A stretch of DNA of 64,000 bases from Escherichia coli (GCF_017348835.2 NZ_CP071375.1), one strand, 5' to 3'; shown: positions 154 through 7,789, numbered from the stretch's first letter. Made by a program: numbers and translations. Notes: generated by a model from the letters alone, not told the origin.

Positions 154-190
154 ACGCCCTCGGGATTACCCGAGGGCGTATTTGTTTCTG
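154..190 (+). terminator. Rho-independent terminator-like hairpin (ACGCCCTCGGG-loop-CCGAGGGCGT) followed by T-rich tract
   Basis: Perfect inverted repeat 154-179 then ATTTGTTTCTG. Confidence 0.5.
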
Positions 191-219: not shown

Positions 220-1305
220 TTAAATACTCGCAATACTCTCACGCAAAATCCGCAGCACCGTCTCTTCACCGCTGCGATTCGGGTTAATGCGAATCGCACA
301 ATGTTCGAGTTGCGGATTCGCCTGGCGGAATGTTCCGGAAAGACGGTAAAAGAGCGGCGGGATCTCATATTTCGACTCTGCACCGACCGGGTAAGGCAAC
401 GCGCCACGCTTTTGCGCTTCTTCCAGCACCCTGGCGGCAATCGGCTGATGAAACTCCACAATCAATACCTTCGACTGCGCATTGGCAATGACGGCGCTTT
501 TCACTTCCGCCACCGCGCCACCGTTGAGCAAGGCCAGCAACCGTTCAGATACCCCTGCCTGCACCGCGTGCATCACTGGCGCGAACACCAGACCACGCAA
601 GACTTCCAGCGCCTGTGAGCCCTGGATCTGGCTACCGCCGGAGTAAAGCGTGGCGCGAATCCGACTAATAACATCGGCATCGCCTACCACTGCGCCAACG
701 CCCTCTGGCCCAAACAGCTTGAAGCAGGAGAATGTCGAGACATTCGCGCCGCATTCGCAGCCAATTCGCGCCACCTTCATCACCGCATAGTTGTCATCGG
801 TTAACGCTGGAACACCTGCCAGGCGCAACGTTGCCAACACATCTGCCAGCACGTAGCTGTCCTGCGGCTGCTGGCGCGTATGCTGCACCAGCGCCGCATC
901 CGGTAGTTGCTCTTCGACAACCTGCTTCAGTGCCGACAGGTTATTGAAATCAGCTGTAATAAGCGTCAGCCCCATCTGTTCAATAATGACCTGAGTCGTC
1001 GGGTAAACAGGCGCGTCATGCACCAGAAGACGCTGCCCCGGTTTGAGCAAAGCCGCCAACGCCGCACGGATCGCGCCAGTACCCGCGCCCTGTACCAGCG
1101 CCACAGCCTGTGCGTGAAATGCATTAGCCAGCACCTGTTCCACACGCTGGGTAATGCGCGGTTGATTCAGCCCCGGCGTTAAGCCTAAATCACCGCCAGT
1201 AAGAAACTCGCTGCCGGGAAAATGGCGACAAATGCTATCCACCAGCGCAAACTGCTTTTGCTGCGCCTCAATAAGCGTCAGGCTTTGCAGAGGAAACGTC
1301 TTCAT
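220..1305 (-). CDS. yhfS: YhfS, PLP-dependent aminotransferase/lyase-like protein of the cryptic yhf cluster
   Basis: 361-aa ORF, recognised protein sequence and synteny. Confidence 0.85.
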   Translation of the reverse strand: MKTFPLQSLTLIEAQQKQFALVDSICRHFPGSEFLTGGDLGLTPGLNQPRITQRVEQVLANAFHAQAVALVQGAGTGAIRAALAALLKPGQRLLVHDAPVYPTTQVIIEQMGLTLITADFNNLSALKQVVEEQLPDAALVQHTRQQPQDSYVLADVLATLRLAGVPALTDDNYAVMKVARIGCECGANVSTFSCFKLFGPEGVGAVVGDADVISRIRATLYSGGSQIQGSQALEVLRGLVFAPVMHAVQAGVSERLLALLNGGAVAEVKSAVIANAQSKVLIVEFHQPIAARVLEEAQKRGALPYPVGAESKYEIPPLFYRLSGTFRQANPQLEHCAIRINPNRSGEETVLRILRESIASI

Positions 1306-1316
1306 AGGTGCCTTCC

Positions 1317-2621
1317 TTAAGCCGGAACGAACAGGCCAAGCCAGTAAAGAACATTCAGCAGAATACCGGTGATCATTACTGCCACGACCGGTGCCGCCAT
1401 TTTCTGTACCGGACGGCCCAGGGATTCGTTGAGGAAGTAAATGGCAACCGCGATAGAGAATCCGGTATATCCCGCCATTTTAATTGCTGCGAAAATCGAA
1501 CCGACCAGCAGCGCCACTTCCATCAGCATATTCATGGCGTTACGGATGTTATCCGACGCATTACGCACCGACGGGTAGCGTCCCAGCCATTTGCCGATCG
1601 AACGAAGTAACAGGACTTCTGCCGAAATAACCACTGCGCCTAATACCGCCGCAACCATCGGATTCGGCGAGAGATAGCCCACCGCATAAACAAAGGTAAA
1701 GCCCGCAACTGCATATACGCCGGTGGCTAACGCGGTGGTGGCAATCAACGGCACAAAACCCAGTCCGCGCATAAACTCCGCCAGAGCTGCCTGGTTGATC
1801 AGCGTTTGCGATTGTTCCGGCGTTACGCCTGCGGAATACGCTTTCTCCAGGGTGAAGATCGACACTTCGCTACCGGCGAAAATCTTCATGCTGGCAACGG
1901 CGGCAATCAGCGCCCCGACAATAGCGATATACGGTAAGTTTTTGATAATCCGCGACGTGCGTTCTTCAAACACCGAAAGCCCGCTGGCATCGATGTCATT
2001 TTCATCACGATGACGCAGGTCGTGCGTTATCGCGATCCCCAGCAGCATTACCATGCCAATAAAGATTTCGATGGATTCAGGGTTGAGATGTGGGAAATAG
2101 CGCACCACCACTACACGGGTCATCAGTACCACCACGGCGGCGACCAGACTTTGCTTCCAGCCGAACTGGTAAAAAATCGCCACCAACGGGAACAGCGCAA
2201 AAGCAGAAACCACTGGCGAGCTTAATTCCCCCAGACTACCTAATACATCCACCGGCAGTGCGGTCAGCAGCTGGTTTACCGGCAACAGACAGGTGAGGAT
2301 CAACACGCCCCAGATAGCGCCAAGACCAAACGCCATCAGGCTGTTTATCGCCAGTACGCCGAGGATATCGGTAGGAAGAAAGAGTAACCATGCGTTGAGC
2401 AGCCCGGTTTTCAGGGTAAAAGAGATCCCCACCGAGGCCACAAAACCAATGCTCAGACCAAAAGCGATACTCCCCGCCTCGCGACGGTTCATATAGCCTT
2501 CAATCAGTTGCGGCAGGATCGGGCGGATGCCGTCATGAAAAACAGCCGCCGAGCGATGCGCCAGAAGCGATGTCATACCCGTCAGGCACGCCACCACGAT
2601 AATCTGAATATACAGATCCAT
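1317..2621 (-). CDS. yhfT: YhfT, polytopic inner-membrane (transporter-like) protein
   Basis: 434-aa hydrophobic ORF, synteny. Confidence 0.85.
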   Translation of the reverse strand: MDLYIQIIVVACLTGMTSLLAHRSAAVFHDGIRPILPQLIEGYMNRREAGSIAFGLSIGFVASVGISFTLKTGLLNAWLLFLPTDILGVLAINSLMAFGLGAIWGVLILTCLLPVNQLLTALPVDVLGSLGELSSPVVSAFALFPLVAIFYQFGWKQSLVAAVVVLMTRVVVVRYFPHLNPESIEIFIGMVMLLGIAITHDLRHRDENDIDASGLSVFEERTSRIIKNLPYIAIVGALIAAVASMKIFAGSEVSIFTLEKAYSAGVTPEQSQTLINQAALAEFMRGLGFVPLIATTALATGVYAVAGFTFVYAVGYLSPNPMVAAVLGAVVISAEVLLLRSIGKWLGRYPSVRNASDNIRNAMNMLMEVALLVGSIFAAIKMAGYTGFSIAVAIYFLNESLGRPVQKMAAPVVAVMITGILLNVLYWLGLFVPA

Positions 2622-2632
2622 AGTCGTACCTT

Positions 2633-2986
2633 TTATTTCAGATGGTTAATCAGCATCGGAATCGCGTGTTCGACGTGCTCAACGGAAAGGGCAAACGCCA
2701 CTTTTCCTTCAGCGATCATTTTGGCGATATGCTCGTCTTTCGCTTTAATGCCCGGCTTGGCAATAGTGCAACTTTTGTTATAGCCAATCACCGCGATGGC
2801 AATCGACAATGCCGCGCCCGCACCGGTATTACACGCGCCGATGTAATAATCCAGTTGCCCGGATTTCACTTTCATTGCCGCTTCCATGTCGTTGTGAATG
2901 AAAACTTCAAAACAGCCAGGAGCCGTCGCTTCAATAGTTTTTTTAATCTGCTCACGCTGTAAGCCTGCAACGCCAATCTTTTTCAT
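2633..2986 (-). CDS. yhfU: YhfU, small conserved protein of unknown function
   Basis: ORF 2633-3025; start placed at internal Met (MKKIGVAGLQ...) giving 117 aa. Confidence 0.7.
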   Translation of the reverse strand: MKKIGVAGLQREQIKKTIEATAPGCFEVFIHNDMEAAMKVKSGQLDYYIGACNTGAGAALSIAIAVIGYNKSCTIAKPGIKAKDEHIAKMIAEGKVAFALSVEHVEHAIPMLINHLK

Positions 2987-2996
2987 GAGTCTGTCC

Positions 2997-3875
2997 TTAT
3001 TGGAAAAATTGAGAGGGATTTTCACGTAACATCACATCCACATCGGCCTGACTGAATCCTGACTGGCGCAATTGCGGAATAAAGGTGGTTAGTAAATAGT
3101 CATAGCCATAACCACCGTTGGCTTTTAAATGGGAGCGGCGCGTAATATCCATCGACAGCATGACGCGGTTCAGCAACCCACGGTCGCGTAGCGCATGAAG
3201 CATCGCAATACGCTTTTCGTCCGGGTAGTAACTGTTCTTACCAATGGTGTCGAACTGCACGTACGCGCCGAGATCGATCATCTTCAAAATGTTGTCGAGG
3301 TTGTCTTTCAGATCGCAGTGACCAACGGTGACGCGCGAAAGATCAACTCCGTGGGCTTGCAACAAAGCCAGTTGCTCCAGCCCCATCGTGCTGAACGACG
3401 TATGCGTGGAGATCGGGCGTCCGGTCTGGTTATGTGCCAGCGCAGCGGCAATAAATACCTTCTCTTCCAGCGGCGTAATCTTCCCTTCGCTGGAGCCGAT
3501 CTCCGCGATGATCCCGGCTTTCAGTTCCGTGCCATCGATACCCTGCTCAATTTCATCGACCATCTCCTGCGCCAGTTCCTGCACGCTGCGGGTCGCCACA
3601 TGTTCCGGGAAAAACGCGTCCTGGTAATAACCGGTACAGGCCACCACGTTGATCCCCGTCTCGCGCATTACATCGAGCATAAATTGCGCATTGCGCCCCA
3701 TGTAACGGTTGGTCATCTCAATCACATTACGCACGCCCCGGGTCATCAGGTCGTTCATCTCCTGGCAAATGAACGCATACTGATCAAGGCGGCAGTCCAC
3801 GTTGTTTTTAAAGCCGGAAAGATCAATATGCAGATGTTCATGGGCGAAGGTGTAGCCCGTCGGATCAAAACTCAT
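2997..3875 (-). CDS. php: Phosphotriesterase homology protein (amidohydrolase superfamily)
   Basis: 292-aa ORF with metal-binding His motifs ([10 protein letters not shown]-terminus), synteny. Confidence 0.9.
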
Positions 3876-5098
3876 AGGGTGTCTCCTGCAAACCGGAGGG
3901 AGGAAAGAAAAGAGCGACCATTTTGTGGCGGTGGCGCACGGAAAAATTCACACACGGTAGCCCCCACATCAGAAAGCGTGGTGCGCACACCGATCTGCGT
4001 AGTGACCAGCCCTTGCTGATAAACCAGCACTGGCACCACTTCACGGGTATGGTGGCTGTGACCAATGGTCGGATCGTTACCGTGATCCGCCATCACGACC
4101 AGGCAATCATCTGGCTGCATCGCCTCGACAAGCCGGGCAAGATTACGGTCAACGACCTGCAAACGTTCGGCATAACGTGCGACGTCTTCTGCGTGACCAG
4201 CGAGGTCGGTTTCCTGAATGTTGGTGCAAATAAACGCTGTCTGATGGGTGATAAATTCGTCGAGGGTGATATCCATAATCCGCTGGCTATCCACCAGATT
4301 TTGCCAGCTCACGCCATAAGGATTGTTGACGATATCTGCCACCTTGCCCACCAGCACGGTTGGCACGCCTGCTTCATACAGTTTTTGTGGCACCTGCACT
4401 TTTTCATCGACGCCATAGCCCATATGCACGACCTGGAAACCGTTGTCATAAGCGCCAGAACGCGGCGCATTAATACCAATAAAGCGCCCTTCTTTGCTTT
4501 CTGCGGCATCGAGAATGCGTTGACTGTCGGGTAACAAGCCGCCAAATGTAATGACCCGACCGACCTGTACCTGCTCACGCACAATACGACCAATTTTGAT
4601 TGCGTCGTCAAAAGAGATCACAGAGAGATTGGCGGTGATGTTATAGACCTGGCCTAAATCCGCCTCGAGATTATCGCCAATCGCAACCGCCTGATTGACC
4701 CACAGAAATTGCAGTTCATCGCCACGGCGCTCCACCTGCCAACCGGCGGAAACTAATGCCTGCTCAACACGGTCAATCACATCGCGAAAGGGCATCCGCA
4801 GCGGCGGTAACGGGCGCGTGCCTAAAATTTCCTGATGCCCCATAAAGGTATCGCCACCTTCATGTTGCAGCTCTGCCACGCCCCAGGTTGCGGAGTCTGA
4901 CGGCTGCATATCGCCTGGCGCATAACCCAATGCGTTGATTAGCCCCAGCTTCTCCAGCGTTGGTAGCTGCAAATGCGGCAACTGGCTCAGGATGTGACCA
5001 CAGGTATTCGCCCCGGCATCCTGCGGACGCACCAGCGTGACATCTTTCATTGCGCCTACGCCAAAGCTATCAATCACTAACACCACAAATCGCGCCAT
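3872..5098 (-). CDS. yhfW: YhfW, phosphopentomutase-like metalloenzyme-superfamily mutase
   Basis: 408-aa ORF, 4-bp overlap with php start, synteny. Confidence 0.85.
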
Positions 5099-6262
5099 TT
5101 ACGCCTCCAGAGGGTTGCCGAGACTGTCATAACGACCAACGATTTTCGGTTCGCCACGGTGAATACCGGACACCAGCACCACATCGCTACGGGTGACAAA
5201 AATCTGCGTGCGGAAACAGAGCACCACTGCACTGCTTACCGGAAACTCGCCTGCCAGCGACAGGGTGTAGTCGATACTGCTGTCATCCACAGTTTTGAGA
5301 TTGGTTTCAGTAATCTTTTGATTTTCTGACGTAAACACCAGCGCATGTTGCGCATGACCACGACGGTAGTAACCGCCGCCGTAGCAGTAGCTGTCGCCAC
5401 GGAAATGATGGGAGATTTCACTTAACCAGAGCATCGCGATACGTTCAGGCTGATCGCCCTGCTGGTTTGCCGGAATAGTACCGGTCAGCGCATGACCGGG
5501 TTCGGCATGAGTCGCACCGTATTCCGCCAGCAATGGCAGCGAAGTGCAGCTGGTCGCTGAAGGCGCGTTCAGTTGCTCAATCGCAATACCAGATTTCGCC
5601 AGTTGATCCCGTGCTTGTACCAGCGTGTGAAGATTCGGTGTTGGCAAAACTTTCCCGGCAGCCTCATCCCAAAGCAGGCAAGGGAAATGGGTTAGTCCGG
5701 CTAAATGCAGCCCCGGCAGTTTCTTAATTTCAGCAACCACCTCGTGCAGCGAATGCTGTACAAAACCGCTCTCCTGCCCCGGATAAAGAAAATCATCGTC
5801 GCTATAAACTTTGAGCAGCACAGACTGGATTCGCCCGGCCTTCACCGCCGCCGCAGAAACTTCCCGCGCTTTGTCGAGAGTAAACACGGTGATGACGTCG
5901 GTGCCCTGTTCAACGGCGTCAGCAACCTGATGACAAGGGATTTGTACCAGATGCCCCTGATGCGCCACCGGCAAACCAGCGCGGCGCATGACTCGCGCCT
6001 CTTTGTAATCCACCGCCACAATGCCGCTGTAGCCCAATGCCAGCAGTTTTTCCGCCAGCCATGGGTTACGACCGAATTGTTTGGTCATCAGATACAGTTC
6101 AATGCCGTAAAGCCGCGCCGTCTCAATCAGCCGCTTACCGTTTTCCAGTATCTGATCCACGTCGATCACCCAGCTGTCCGGGGCGATCTTGCCCTGCTGC
6201 CACAGGCTTAGTGCGGCGGAAATCAGCGCCGGGTTCTGGCGTTTCAATGCTTCTACAAACAT
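5099..6262 (-). CDS. yhfX: YhfX, alanine-racemase-like PLP-binding barrel protein
   Basis: 387-aa ORF abutting yhfW. Confidence 0.8.
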   Translation of the reverse strand: MFVEALKRQNPALISAALSLWQQGKIAPDSWVIDVDQILENGKRLIETARLYGIELYLMTKQFGRNPWLAEKLLALGYSGIVAVDYKEARVMRRAGLPVAHQGHLVQIPCHQVADAVEQGTDVITVFTLDKAREVSAAAVKAGRIQSVLLKVYSDDDFLYPGQESGFVQHSLHEVVAEIKKLPGLHLAGLTHFPCLLWDEAAGKVLPTPNLHTLVQARDQLAKSGIAIEQLNAPSATSCTSLPLLAEYGATHAEPGHALTGTIPANQQGDQPERIAMLWLSEISHHFRGDSYCYGGGYYRRGHAQHALVFTSENQKITETNLKTVDDSSIDYTLSLAGEFPVSSAVVLCFRTQIFVTRSDVVLVSGIHRGEPKIVGRYDSLGNPLEA

Positions 6263-6345
6263 CTTGTTGCCTCGTTTCTGTTCCTTGAATTAAATATTCA
6301 TTTTTTTGAATATTTAGGTTGTGCGACGTGGATTTGTCGGGAGCT

Positions 6346-6708
6346 TCAAACCTCTTCGTTAGCAGCCATCCATAATCCATAAAGGTTGGCCAGCAAATAG
6401 CCTTCTTCACACGGGTTAACTTCCAGTGCGAATTCCTTCAACAACACCTGATGCAATTGCACAATGGCTTGCCAGTGGCTGGATTGCGCCAGCTCTGCCA
6501 GCAACTCGTTATCCAGTGGCTCAATTTCTTCACCACGGCGACTGCGCATCAGTGCACTCGCCATATGTGTCATCGCCATCGTTCCTTGCTCACTGCGCAC
6601 CGGCAGATGGCACTCTGTTTCCAGTACCTTGACGACCTGCATCATGCCTTTGCAGATGTCCTTATCAATAACGCCTGCATCGCAAAGCAGGTTGAGTCTG
6701 GTTTCCAT
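6346..6708 (-). CDS. yhfY: YhfY, small conserved protein
   Basis: ORF 6346-6750; start placed at internal Met (METRLNLL...) giving 120 aa. Confidence 0.7.
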   Translation of the reverse strand: METRLNLLCDAGVIDKDICKGMMQVVKVLETECHLPVRSEQGTMAMTHMASALMRSRRGEEIEPLDNELLAELAQSSHWQAIVQLHQVLLKEFALEVNPCEEGYLLANLYGLWMAANEEV

Positions 6709-6724
6709 ATCAGATGCCTTTCGT

Positions 6725-7630
6725 TTAATAACTCGGTTCCTGTTCCCCACTCACCACCCGTTGTTGATGGGCGAGCAGGGCGTGTTTATCTACAACGGCA
6801 CGCAGCAGTTGTTGCATTGGGTAATCATCGACTCGCGTCAGGACCACGGCTTCGGTGGCCTGTAAAAATCGCGGATCGTCTGTGAGCGGCGTCGCCTCTA
6901 ATCCCAGCATGGTCAGTTCGTTTTCCGCCACCACGTTCCAGATAACCGCATCAACATCGCCTTTAACAATGCGTTGTAAACTCTCGTGATAAGAGAGATC
7001 GACTCGTTCCACATCACTACCGCCAAAAAAGACATCAGTCATGATTTTCTGATCCGCCGAACGGTTATCCAGCCCCACGCGCTTCACGTTTGCGGACTCG
7101 CCTTTACGGCAAATCAACTGGTGCTCTCCAACGTAGGTGTGCGGCCCCAACTCCAGCGCGAGGCATAACCCTTTTTGCGTGAGATAACTTTCCGCCGCCA
7201 GTCGGGAAACCACCGCCATGTCATACACGCCGTTAAGTAAACACTCCACGCGAATATCCGCGCCGCGCATATGCGCATAGTAAAAAGGAATGCCATCAAA
7301 CTGGGCTTTCAATCCGCTCGCTAAACCTTCGTACAAGCGGGTATAGGGCAAAGGCATCGCACATACCACGTTGTTAATATCCACATGACTCAGCAATGCT
7401 TTGTTATCCATCTCGACCAGATAACTGCCATTGCGCCCACGGCGTTCAATCCGTATCGCTCCGCTTGATTCCAGCGTTTTCAACGCGGCCTGCGTCAGGC
7501 CAACGGATGAACGGCATTCAGTTGCCAGCTCATCTATGGTTTTCAACCTATTACCGCATTTTTCACCCAACAAATAACGGGCCAGCGTCGTGATAACGAC
7601 GCCTTCTTTTTTGATAAACGTTCGACGCAT
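6725..7630 (-). CDS. yhfZ: YhfZ, putative transcriptional regulator heading the yhf cluster
   Basis: 301-aa ORF, synteny. Confidence 0.8.
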   Translation of the reverse strand: MRRTFIKKEGVVITTLARYLLGEKCGNRLKTIDELATECRSSVGLTQAALKTLESSGAIRIERRGRNGSYLVEMDNKALLSHVDINNVVCAMPLPYTRLYEGLASGLKAQFDGIPFYYAHMRGADIRVECLLNGVYDMAVVSRLAAESYLTQKGLCLALELGPHTYVGEHQLICRKGESANVKRVGLDNRSADQKIMTDVFFGGSDVERVDLSYHESLQRIVKGDVDAVIWNVVAENELTMLGLEATPLTDDPRFLQATEAVVLTRVDDYPMQQLLRAVVDKHALLAHQQRVVSGEQEPSY

Positions 7631-7748
7631 AATAAATTTTCAGTAAATTGAATATTTATATCTTCAGGAATTTGAAGATAAGGCGCAACAGCGAGATGTG
7701 GAAACGGCGAGGCACTTCACATTTTTTCGGATTATTGCAAATGAGGAT

Positions 7749-7778
7749 AAAAAAACCGGGTTTCCCCGGTTTTTGGCA
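7749..7778 (-). terminator. Rho-independent terminator downstream of trpS
   Basis: AAAAAACCGGG-TTTC-CCCGGTTTTT hairpin with flanking A/T runs (bidirectional shape). Confidence 0.65.
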
Positions 7779-7789
7779 TTAATGTTAAA

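Follow-up and report, generated by a model that had tools for sequence, protein, structure and literature searches.

What do the 8 yhf genes of Escherichia coli, which are among the better-known genes of unknown function in this species, do together, and on which compound do they act? We addressed this question for the copy of the cluster at positions 220 to 7630 of a 64,000-nt stretch of the E. coli chromosome (GCF_017348835.2, NZ_CP071375.1; hereafter the window), the first 9 kb of which are 100% identical to strain PE164. The 8 genes, yhfZ, yhfY, yhfX, yhfW, php, yhfU, yhfT, and yhfS, all lie on the minus strand with intact open reading frames (ORFs); a mechanical ORF list and the RefSeq annotation of PE164, from which the gene coordinates were taken, agree on this and bear out the co-directional arrangement reported in a preliminary description of the locus. 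The locus is ordinary annotated E. coli sequence, and its function is a long-standing unknown. The reading that we favor, at a probability of about 0.5, is a horizontally mobile catabolic module linked to the phosphotransferase system (PTS) and repressed by YhfZ, with a regulatory pair (yhfZ-yhfY), a structural operon (yhfX-yhfW-php-yhfU-yhfT), and yhfS as an add-on. The favored substrate is a phosphorylated amino-sugar acid, lactone, or N-acyl amino-sugar.

The preliminary description had proposed a comparison of genomic context as a check, and in this comparison the same families co-localized in 50 diverse loci from several phyla, clustering far beyond chance. A genome scan for YhfT, which used a 10-sequence alignment, identified the protein in 481 of 100,044 species genomes. 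YhfT also has 305 relatives among 50%-identity cluster representatives, and YhfT homologues at only 27% to 37% identity were again neighbored by YhfZ, a protein with a PTS regulation domain (PRD), DUF2620, a phosphotriesterase (PTE) family protein, YhfX, and a metalloenzyme. Seven of the 8 families form a linked set in Enterobacterales, Vibrionaceae, Fusobacteria, Clostridia, and Bacilli; the exception is yhfS, which was found in just 10 of the 50 loci. With each gene reduced to its last letter and php to P, the order is Z Y X W P U T S in Enterobacteriaceae, Z Y P U T X W in Vibrionaceae, and Z Y U T P (S) X W in Firmicutes; several Yersinia are without W and S, and Enterovibrio has U T X W only. 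The adjacencies that outlasted this reshuffling are U-T in 45 of 46 loci (median gap, 10 bp), Z-Y in 40, and X-W in 31. The regulator gene yhfZ was present in 44 of the 50 loci and yhfX in 41, including the minimal U-T-X-W loci, with a phosphomutase gene beside YhfX in 40, and YhfX is the sole enzyme present in every variant. The functional core is U-T-X, with P and W frequent and S accessory, and since none of the other enzymes is needed in every lineage, central metabolites must be the products. The yhf cluster is an ancient, mobile, self-contained module. The earlier view of a single 8-gene cluster stands as far as the co-localization of the families is concerned, but yhfS falls outside the conserved core, and the genes probably form 2 transcription units, yhfZY and yhfXW-php-yhfUTS, rather than 1.

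The probable boundary between these 2 units is marked by a palindrome. The pattern ATMTTCA-N6-TGAAKAT has just 3 matches in the whole 64-kb window, where 0.02 would be expected; the pattern was derived from the 3 sites, so this window statistic is post hoc, and conservation serves as the independent test. Two sites stand in tandem upstream of yhfZ (6725-7630, minus strand). The distal candidate operator, O1 (7660-7679, ATCTTCA-N6-TGAAGAT), has 0 mismatches to the pattern and is conserved in ten Enterobacterales upstream regions, and the proximal candidate, O2 (7634-7657, AAATATTCA-N6-TGAAAATTT), ends 3 bp before the yhfZ ATG. The third site, O3 (6292-6315), is a perfect palindrome, AAATATTCA-N6-TGAATATTT, located 29 bp ahead of the yhfX ATG, within the 83 bp between yhfY and yhfX. 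A scan of 1.51 Mb of related loci, allowing up to 3 mismatches, gave 83 matches, 40 of them directly upstream of yhfX and 30 directly upstream of yhfZ homologues; the others were 10 inside php, all in Vibrio, and 3 elsewhere, 2 of which fall in an equivalent gap and in the upstream region of a second yhfZ paralogue. O3 forms an invariant 24-bp island in yhfY-yhfX spacers that are otherwise unalignable among 11 genera, and O1, O2, and a TGTGA-N6-TCNCN element are conserved upstream of yhfZ in the Enterobacterales alignment. An equivalent palindrome abuts the yhfZ start in Vibrionaceae, and Clostridia have a variant, ATATACA..TGTATAT, beside yhfZ.

YhfZ combines an HTH_41 domain with a periplasmic-binding-protein-like YhfZ_C domain (PF14502, 67 bits; PF14503, 283 bits) and matches its own full-length model, NCBIfam NF041241 YhfZ_full, at 374 bits against a cut-off of 260. 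Two marks of a GntR-type repressor of the YhfZ family, the family-model match and a conserved palindrome in the promoter regions of the genes concerned, were found. The candidate sites form a phylogenetic footprint that implies control by YhfZ, and from this pattern we infer both the binding of YhfZ and its sign, with YhfZ as the presumed repressor of the cluster. YhfZ would then occupy the tandem pair that covers its own promoter and start codon as well as the single site upstream of yhfX, and both units would be repressed until an inducer appears. About 26 bp upstream of O1 lies a CRP-like half-consensus, TGTGA-N6-TCGCC (7706-7721, minus strand), whose TGTGA is nearly invariant in Enterobacterales and which may indicate catabolite control. 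An operon table reproduced in PMC4448311 lists php and yhfS, T, U, W, and X as 1 unit, without Z and Y. A consensus terminator scan found no internal terminator within the cluster.

We also considered the yhfY-yhfX palindrome as an RNA antiterminator target of a PRD protein and rejected this candidate: YhfY is without an RNA-binding (CAT) domain, the stem would be A/U-only with no terminator downstream, and the palindrome recurs as DNA sites before yhfZ. A separate observation concerns YhfZ paralogues. In Vibrio and Photobacterium (L051:4258-7153, L060:17211-21269, and L061), a PTS operon of the lactose/cellobiose type (IIB-IIC-IIA) with a DUF7916 protein adjoins the yhf-like cluster; the Photobacterium operon carries a YhfZ paralogue of its own, with an operator-like site upstream of that paralogue in L061, and YhfZ-family regulators therefore appear to control a canonical PTS operon as well.

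The connection to the PTS comes through the second gene of the regulatory pair, yhfY (6346-6708, minus strand; the mechanical ORF reaches a GTG at 6750), which encodes a stand-alone PRD protein. E. coli YhfY scores 19.7 bits with the Pfam PRD model, just under the 23-bit cut-off, whereas 23 of 31 members of its family gave a PRD match, the best with an E value of 2.5e-11; a weak match to TIGR03582 EF_0829 (E value, 1.7e-6) was also found. H48, A52, R55, and E101 are invariant in the family, the first 3 forming a His48-x3-Ala52-x2-Arg55 motif around its single invariant histidine. PRD domains are phosphorylated by HPr or EIIB, and the YhfY family has the conserved phosphorylatable histidine that characterizes the PRD regulators of PTS-controlled operons. 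Genetic association with the general PTS proteins, enzyme I (EI) and HPr, was identified as well: HPr genes lie within the cluster in 1 metagenomic and 3 clostridial loci (L004, L074, L076, and L077), and in a further locus (L070), ptsI overlaps the end of yhfW. The cluster therefore carries the regulatory hallmark of a PTS operon and, in some genomes, general PTS genes themselves. Phosphorylation of cluster components by the PTS would follow from these associations, with YhfY coupling the system to the PTS through phosphorylation by HPr or EI.

The transport genes are no less unusual. YhfT (1317-2621, minus strand) is a polytopic membrane protein of family PF10797 and the presumed permease; its predicted fold is confident, and a search with this fold against the PDB gave no meaningful match, nor does YhfT show homology to a recognized membrane EIIC family. 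YhfU (2633-2986, minus strand), a DUF2620 protein and the obligate partner of YhfT, has a truncated RpiB/LacAB-like fold with an invariant Cys52 in a G-x-C-x-[ST]-G-x-G loop, and this cysteine aligns with Cys66 of RpiB. It is about 30 residues shorter than RpiB, the C-terminal third of which is missing; RpiB His99 and Asn100 are not aligned to conserved positions, and YhfU gave no match to the Pfam LacAB_rpiB model. No family match to PTS_EIIA was found among the 8 proteins or their recurrent neighbors. The pair of YhfT and the RpiB-fold cysteine protein YhfU, judged by these searches, fits no known permease family. YhfT together with YhfU, in which only the cysteine loop of RpiB is kept, would import the substrate and probably deliver it phosphorylated. 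A bolder proposal, which we put forward tentatively and consider possible but rather unlikely, is that YhfT, YhfU, and YhfY constitute an unrecognized form of PTS-coupled uptake and the prototype of a new PTS family for an amino-sugar-acid or lactone nutrient that is absent so far from the known E. coli substrates. The permease would have a fold without a solved relative, the phosphocysteine carrier would have been recruited from the RpiB fold and not from an EIIB family, and the stand-alone PRD protein would either pass phosphate on from HPr or signal transport activity to YhfZ. In one metagenomic locus (L087:4771-8708), 2 YhfT paralogues occur in the same cluster, with an amidase-like gene and a DUF2620 gene between them.

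The enzymes set the chemistry within which a substrate has to be sought. The gene identities and domain classes given in the preliminary description, namely a regulator, 2 pyridoxal 5'-phosphate (PLP) enzymes, a mutase, an amidohydrolase, a transporter, and 2 small proteins, match the results of our domain searches. YhfX (5099-6262, minus strand) is a fold-type III, alanine-racemase-like PLP enzyme with a YhfX-specific C-terminal domain; it matches PF01168 at 78.8 bits against a cut-off of 24.1, together with PF21279, and has an invariant PLP lysine, K61. Its profile finds only alanine racemase and D-threonine aldolase among solved structures, at about equal distance (E value, about 1e-4), and its match to the ornithine racemase model is weak, at 32 bits against 480. 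YhfW (3872-5098, minus strand) is a phosphopentomutase-like phosphomutase of the binuclear-metal type and a paralogue of DeoB, with 187 bits to PF01676 and 736 bits, above the cut-off, to its own model NF009049, which NCBI names "phosphopentomutase." It reaches only 144 bits with the DeoB model TIGR01696 (cut-off, 341) and is not a DeoB equivalog by that measure, although phosphopentomutases are its nearest solved relatives (1e-54). The YhfW invariants D10, D298, H302, D338, H339, and H350 are presumably the counterparts of the metal ligands in the Bacillus cereus phosphopentomutase structure.

Php (2997-3875, minus strand) belongs to the PTE family of the amidohydrolase superfamily, with a PF02126 match of 488 bits over residues 1 to 292 and 656 bits to NF007373, and is a putative lactonase or deacylase; against the phospho-furanose lactonase model NF045706, of the Lmo2620 type, it scores 100 bits where the cut-off is 630. 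The PTE family includes phospho-sugar lactonases. YhfS (220-1305, minus strand), the accessory fold-type I PLP enzyme, resembles enzymes of cysteine and methionine metabolism, with a YhfS-specific C-terminal domain, a match to PF22475, weak matches to PF00155 and PF01053, and an invariant K196; among solved structures it comes closest to methionine gamma-lyase, cystathionine gamma-synthase, and cysteine desulfurase (about 1e-9). For YhfX, YhfW, and YhfS alike, comparison of the family profile with solved structures did not single out a reaction type. Two enzymes studied elsewhere are instructive: OngC, a PLP enzyme of fold type III, converts D-glucosaminate to 2-keto-3-deoxygluconate by deamination (KDG; PMC9537276), and PTER, a mammalian member of the PTE family, hydrolyzes N-acetyltaurine and N-acetyl-beta-alanine (PMC11374699).

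Lineage-specific add-on genes point in the same chemical direction. The gene nagB, above the TIGR00502 cut-off, immediately follows yhfX or yhfW in 4 Bacilli and is the only recurrent flanking family by enrichment among 69 flanking genes of the Firmicute and Fusobacterial loci; the other immediate neighbors there, including regulators, GNAT proteins, a 2-hydroxyacid dehydrogenase, and unrelated transporters, were uninformative. Some variants have a ComB-type phosphatase and a Cof-type HAD phosphatase, and a short amidase-like gene lies beside YhfT in Sebaldella and in 1 metagenome. The lineage-specific add-on genes all concern the handling of amino-sugars or sugar phosphates. We count among them the gene for a protein of about 700 to 770 residues, with a C-terminal CBM5/12 module for chitin or cellulose binding and an unannotated N-terminal part, that adjoins the cluster in Photobacterium (L060:13822-16134) and in one Enterobacter (L041:2854-4671).

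From these parts we infer the catabolic direction and the chemical class of the substrate, an amino-sugar, amino-sugar acid, or lactone. After import, Php would open a lactone, lactam, or N-acyl bond and YhfW would relocate the phosphate; YhfX would carry out the committed PLP step at the amino-bearing carbon, which may be a deamination, a retro-aldol cleavage, or an epimerization. The pathway would feed into central metabolism at a compound such as a 2-keto-3-deoxy-sugar-acid phosphate or, where nagB is present, glucosamine-6-phosphate. The cautiously worded suggestion of the preliminary description that the genes break down a phosphorylated amino or sugar-amino compound gains support from the PRD, HPr, and EI links, from nagB in the 4 Bacilli, and from the 2 PLP enzymes, the phosphomutase, and the PTE-family hydrolase.

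Several points weigh against the PTS-linked, YhfZ-repressed module as we have drawn it. HPr or EI genes were found within the cluster in only 5 loci, from Firmicute-like genomes or a metagenome and not from E. coli, where ptsHI are located away from the yhf cluster, and the nagB adjacency is confined to one lineage. The exact compound is not derivable from the sequence. E. coli K-12 is reported not to grow on D-glucosaminate, and D-glucosaminate is therefore unlikely as the substrate, or the operon is silent. Neither operator region showed a convincing promoter in a sigma-70 consensus scan, and the 2-unit model therefore draws on the operator, the 83-bp gap, and the operon list, with presumed promoter positions. 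The model also does not account for an operator-like sequence, AAATCCTCA-N6-TGAAAATTT, about 170 bp inside php in ten Vibrionaceae species (L062:8900-8923 and L054:8902-8925, for example), which may represent either an operator within the gene or a chance effect of peptide conservation.

How far the PTS link extends is the point on which the closest rival turns. If the link were regulatory only, YhfT would be an ion-coupled secondary transporter and YhfU a soluble RpiB-like isomerase acting on a pathway intermediate, and the phosphate would arrive with the substrate or be added by a kinase whose gene lies elsewhere. We regard this arrangement as a doubtful but possible one. An isomerase role sits poorly with a YhfU that has lost the C-terminal third of RpiB and shows no conserved positions at His99 and Asn100, while the near-universal U-T adjacency, in which gaps of about 10 bp persist from phylum to phylum, points to physical association of YhfU with the membrane protein, and HPr and EI genes inside some of the clusters are hard to explain by regulation alone. 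A second rival keeps the catabolic character of the module and replaces its substrate by a non-sugar, either an N-acylated or cyclized D-amino acid or an amino acid bearing a sulfonate or phosphate. Php would then be a deacylase comparable to PTER and YhfX a racemase, the L-specific lyase or aminotransferase step would fall to YhfS, and YhfW would act on a phosphorylated side product. The N-acetylated substrates of PTER fit such a scheme, as do the sequence relatives of YhfX, which are only racemases, D-threonine aldolase, and the weakly matching ornithine racemase, the resemblance of YhfS to cysteine and methionine gamma-lyases, and the amidase-like genes in 2 variants. Nevertheless, we judge it clearly unlikely: PRD proteins and in-cluster HPr or EI are known only from carbohydrate PTS contexts, to which they point here as well; a phosphomutase stands beside YhfX in 40 of the 50 loci; the add-ons actually observed are nagB and sugar-phosphate phosphatases; and YhfS, on which the scheme relies for its lyase, is missing from most lineages.

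The remaining rival would deny the genes a common function and see in them an accidental or decaying juxtaposition, a cryptic remnant. Neither a phenotype nor an inducing condition was found in the literature to mid-2026, and the consensus scan gave no strong promoter, both of which would suit a remnant. Its ORFs would nevertheless have had to remain intact, and mostly under purifying selection, in a region that is matched in 5425 of 5426 complete E. coli genomes, and its gene set and operators would have had to be conserved across phyla. The comparative data effectively refute a functionless remnant, which can be regarded as essentially excluded, and the label "cryptic" used in the preliminary description is not something that the sequence shows.

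The genes are packed tightly, with spacings of 16 bp (Z-Y), 83 bp (Y-X), 0 bp (X-W), -4 bp (W-php), 10 bp (php-U), 11 bp (U-T), and 11 bp (T-S). The 4-bp overlap of php and yhfW at 3872-3875, an ATGA, was confirmed as first described. At the abutting junction further upstream, the labels had been swapped: it is the yhfX stop (TAA, 5099-5101) that directly abuts the yhfW start (ATG, 5098-5096), and not a yhfW stop that meets a yhfX start. The upstream boundary of the cluster is the trpS intrinsic terminator (7749-7774, minus strand), ACCGGGGAAACCCGGT followed by a T-run, the hairpin of which is conserved in the Enterobacterales alignment. The downstream boundary is a GC-rich, terminator-like hairpin of 11 pairs between the convergent yhfL and yhfS (154-179, plus strand).

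Comparison with K-12 showed amino acid identity above nucleotide identity in 6 of the 8 genes, for example, 99.5% against 95.9% in YhfT, and these 6 genes therefore appear to be under purifying selection; the 2 values are about equal in yhfX (95.3% and 95.4%), and in yhfY the amino acid identity is the lower one (97.5% against 98.3%). Divergence from K-12 is mosaic, with nucleotide identities of 93.7% in yhfS and 95.4% in yhfX and of about 98% in php, yhfU, and yhfY, which suggests recombination tracts near the frl insertion or deletion. In K-12, yhfL (1-113 of the window, plus strand) and yhfS are separated by the fructoselysine operon frlABCDR, which the window strain lacks. A contiguous yhfL-yhfS junction was identified in 2104 of 5426 complete E. 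coli genomes, so the presence or absence of frl is a common polymorphism. We rejected the adjacency of frl as a clue to the substrate, since both this strain and 39% of the complete E. coli genomes do without that operon. In the trpS-yhfZ gap (7631-7789 of the window), K-12 (L002:16346-16634) has approximately 130 extra bases, GC-rich and palindromic like repetitive extragenic palindromic (REP) elements, which the window strain is without; the operators and the trpS terminator are unaffected by them.

Open-access full text and bioRxiv, searched to mid-2026 by gene, protein, and family names, gave no assignment of a substrate or regulon, in agreement with the earlier statement that the substrate is not established. 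Papers from 2025 and 2026 still call YhfZ a "putative transcription factor" and YhfW a "putative mutase." Crystal structures of 3 cluster proteins, namely YhfX (4KBX, "uncharacterized protein YhfX"), YhfS (4J8L), and Php (1BF6 and 4LEF), have been available for at least ten years with the reactions unassigned, deposited as uncharacterized or as "homology protein." What the present analysis adds is the conserved operator with the 2-unit model, a division of the genes into core and accessory ones that spans several phyla, the PTS/PRD connection, and a transport pair outside the known permease families. These comparative results turn a vague hint into specific testable points, including the operator and its repressor, YhfY His48, YhfU Cys52, and dependence on the PTS, and they narrow the chemical search space to phosphorylated amino-sugar acids, lactones, and N-acyl derivatives. 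Should transport prove to be PTS-coupled, a new permease family would join a system whose E. coli inventory is generally taken to be complete, and knowledge of the substrate would tell which reaction the bacterial relatives of mammalian PTER carry out physiologically.

Known systems resemble the yhf module in part. The EF_0829/AHA_3910 neighborhood (TIGR03577-03582), according to the TIGRFAMs descriptions, comprises a PRD protein, a small protein with a cysteine motif, novel membrane proteins, a SelA-like PLP enzyme, and an amidohydrolase; its architecture of parts is the same as that of yhf, but the families differ for every component except the PRD protein, and a literature search gave no functional assignment for the EF_0829 system, which explains nothing yet for yhf. 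YhfU is set apart from the RpiB/LacAB isomerases in that it is always encoded directly before a membrane protein. The ong cluster for the oxidized chitin monomer GlcNAc1A (PMC9537276) is similar in that a deacylase of amidohydrolase type and a PLP deaminase of fold type III act in turn on an amino-sugar acid. It differs in its sodium-solute symporter, D-aminoacylase-type deacetylase, RidA, and KDG kinase and is without a PTS/PRD link and a phosphomutase, and OngC and YhfX, which belong to different clades, are likened by fold type alone.

The ula system for L-ascorbate and the Lmo2620 clusters import a lactone through the PTS and then hydrolyze the phosphorylated lactone, and Php shares PF02126 with Lmo2620; however, EIIC and EIIB of ula are unrelated to YhfT and YhfU, and ula is without PLP enzymes. 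The Lmo2620/Bh0225 clusters of PTE-family phospho-sugar lactonases are reportedly the subject of work by Xiang et al. that appeared in Biochemistry in 2012. The Salmonella D-glucosaminate system dgaABCDEF is said, by Miller et al. in J Bacteriol in 2013, to consist of a mannose-family PTS, the PLP ammonia-lyase DgaE, and DgaF, an aldolase for 2-keto-3-deoxy-6-phosphogluconate (KDPG). Both dga and, on our reading, yhf are PTS-linked operons, and dga imports an amino-sugar acid as its phosphate and converts it by PLP-dependent deamination to a central metabolite. The dga system relies on EIIABCD of the canonical mannose type, on activation through sigma-54, and on a fold-type I lyase that resembles SelA, and none of these occurs in yhf. 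Their places are taken by YhfT and YhfU, by the presumed repressor YhfZ together with a PRD protein, and by a PLP enzyme of fold type III, and yhf has a PTE-family hydrolase and a phosphomutase in addition.

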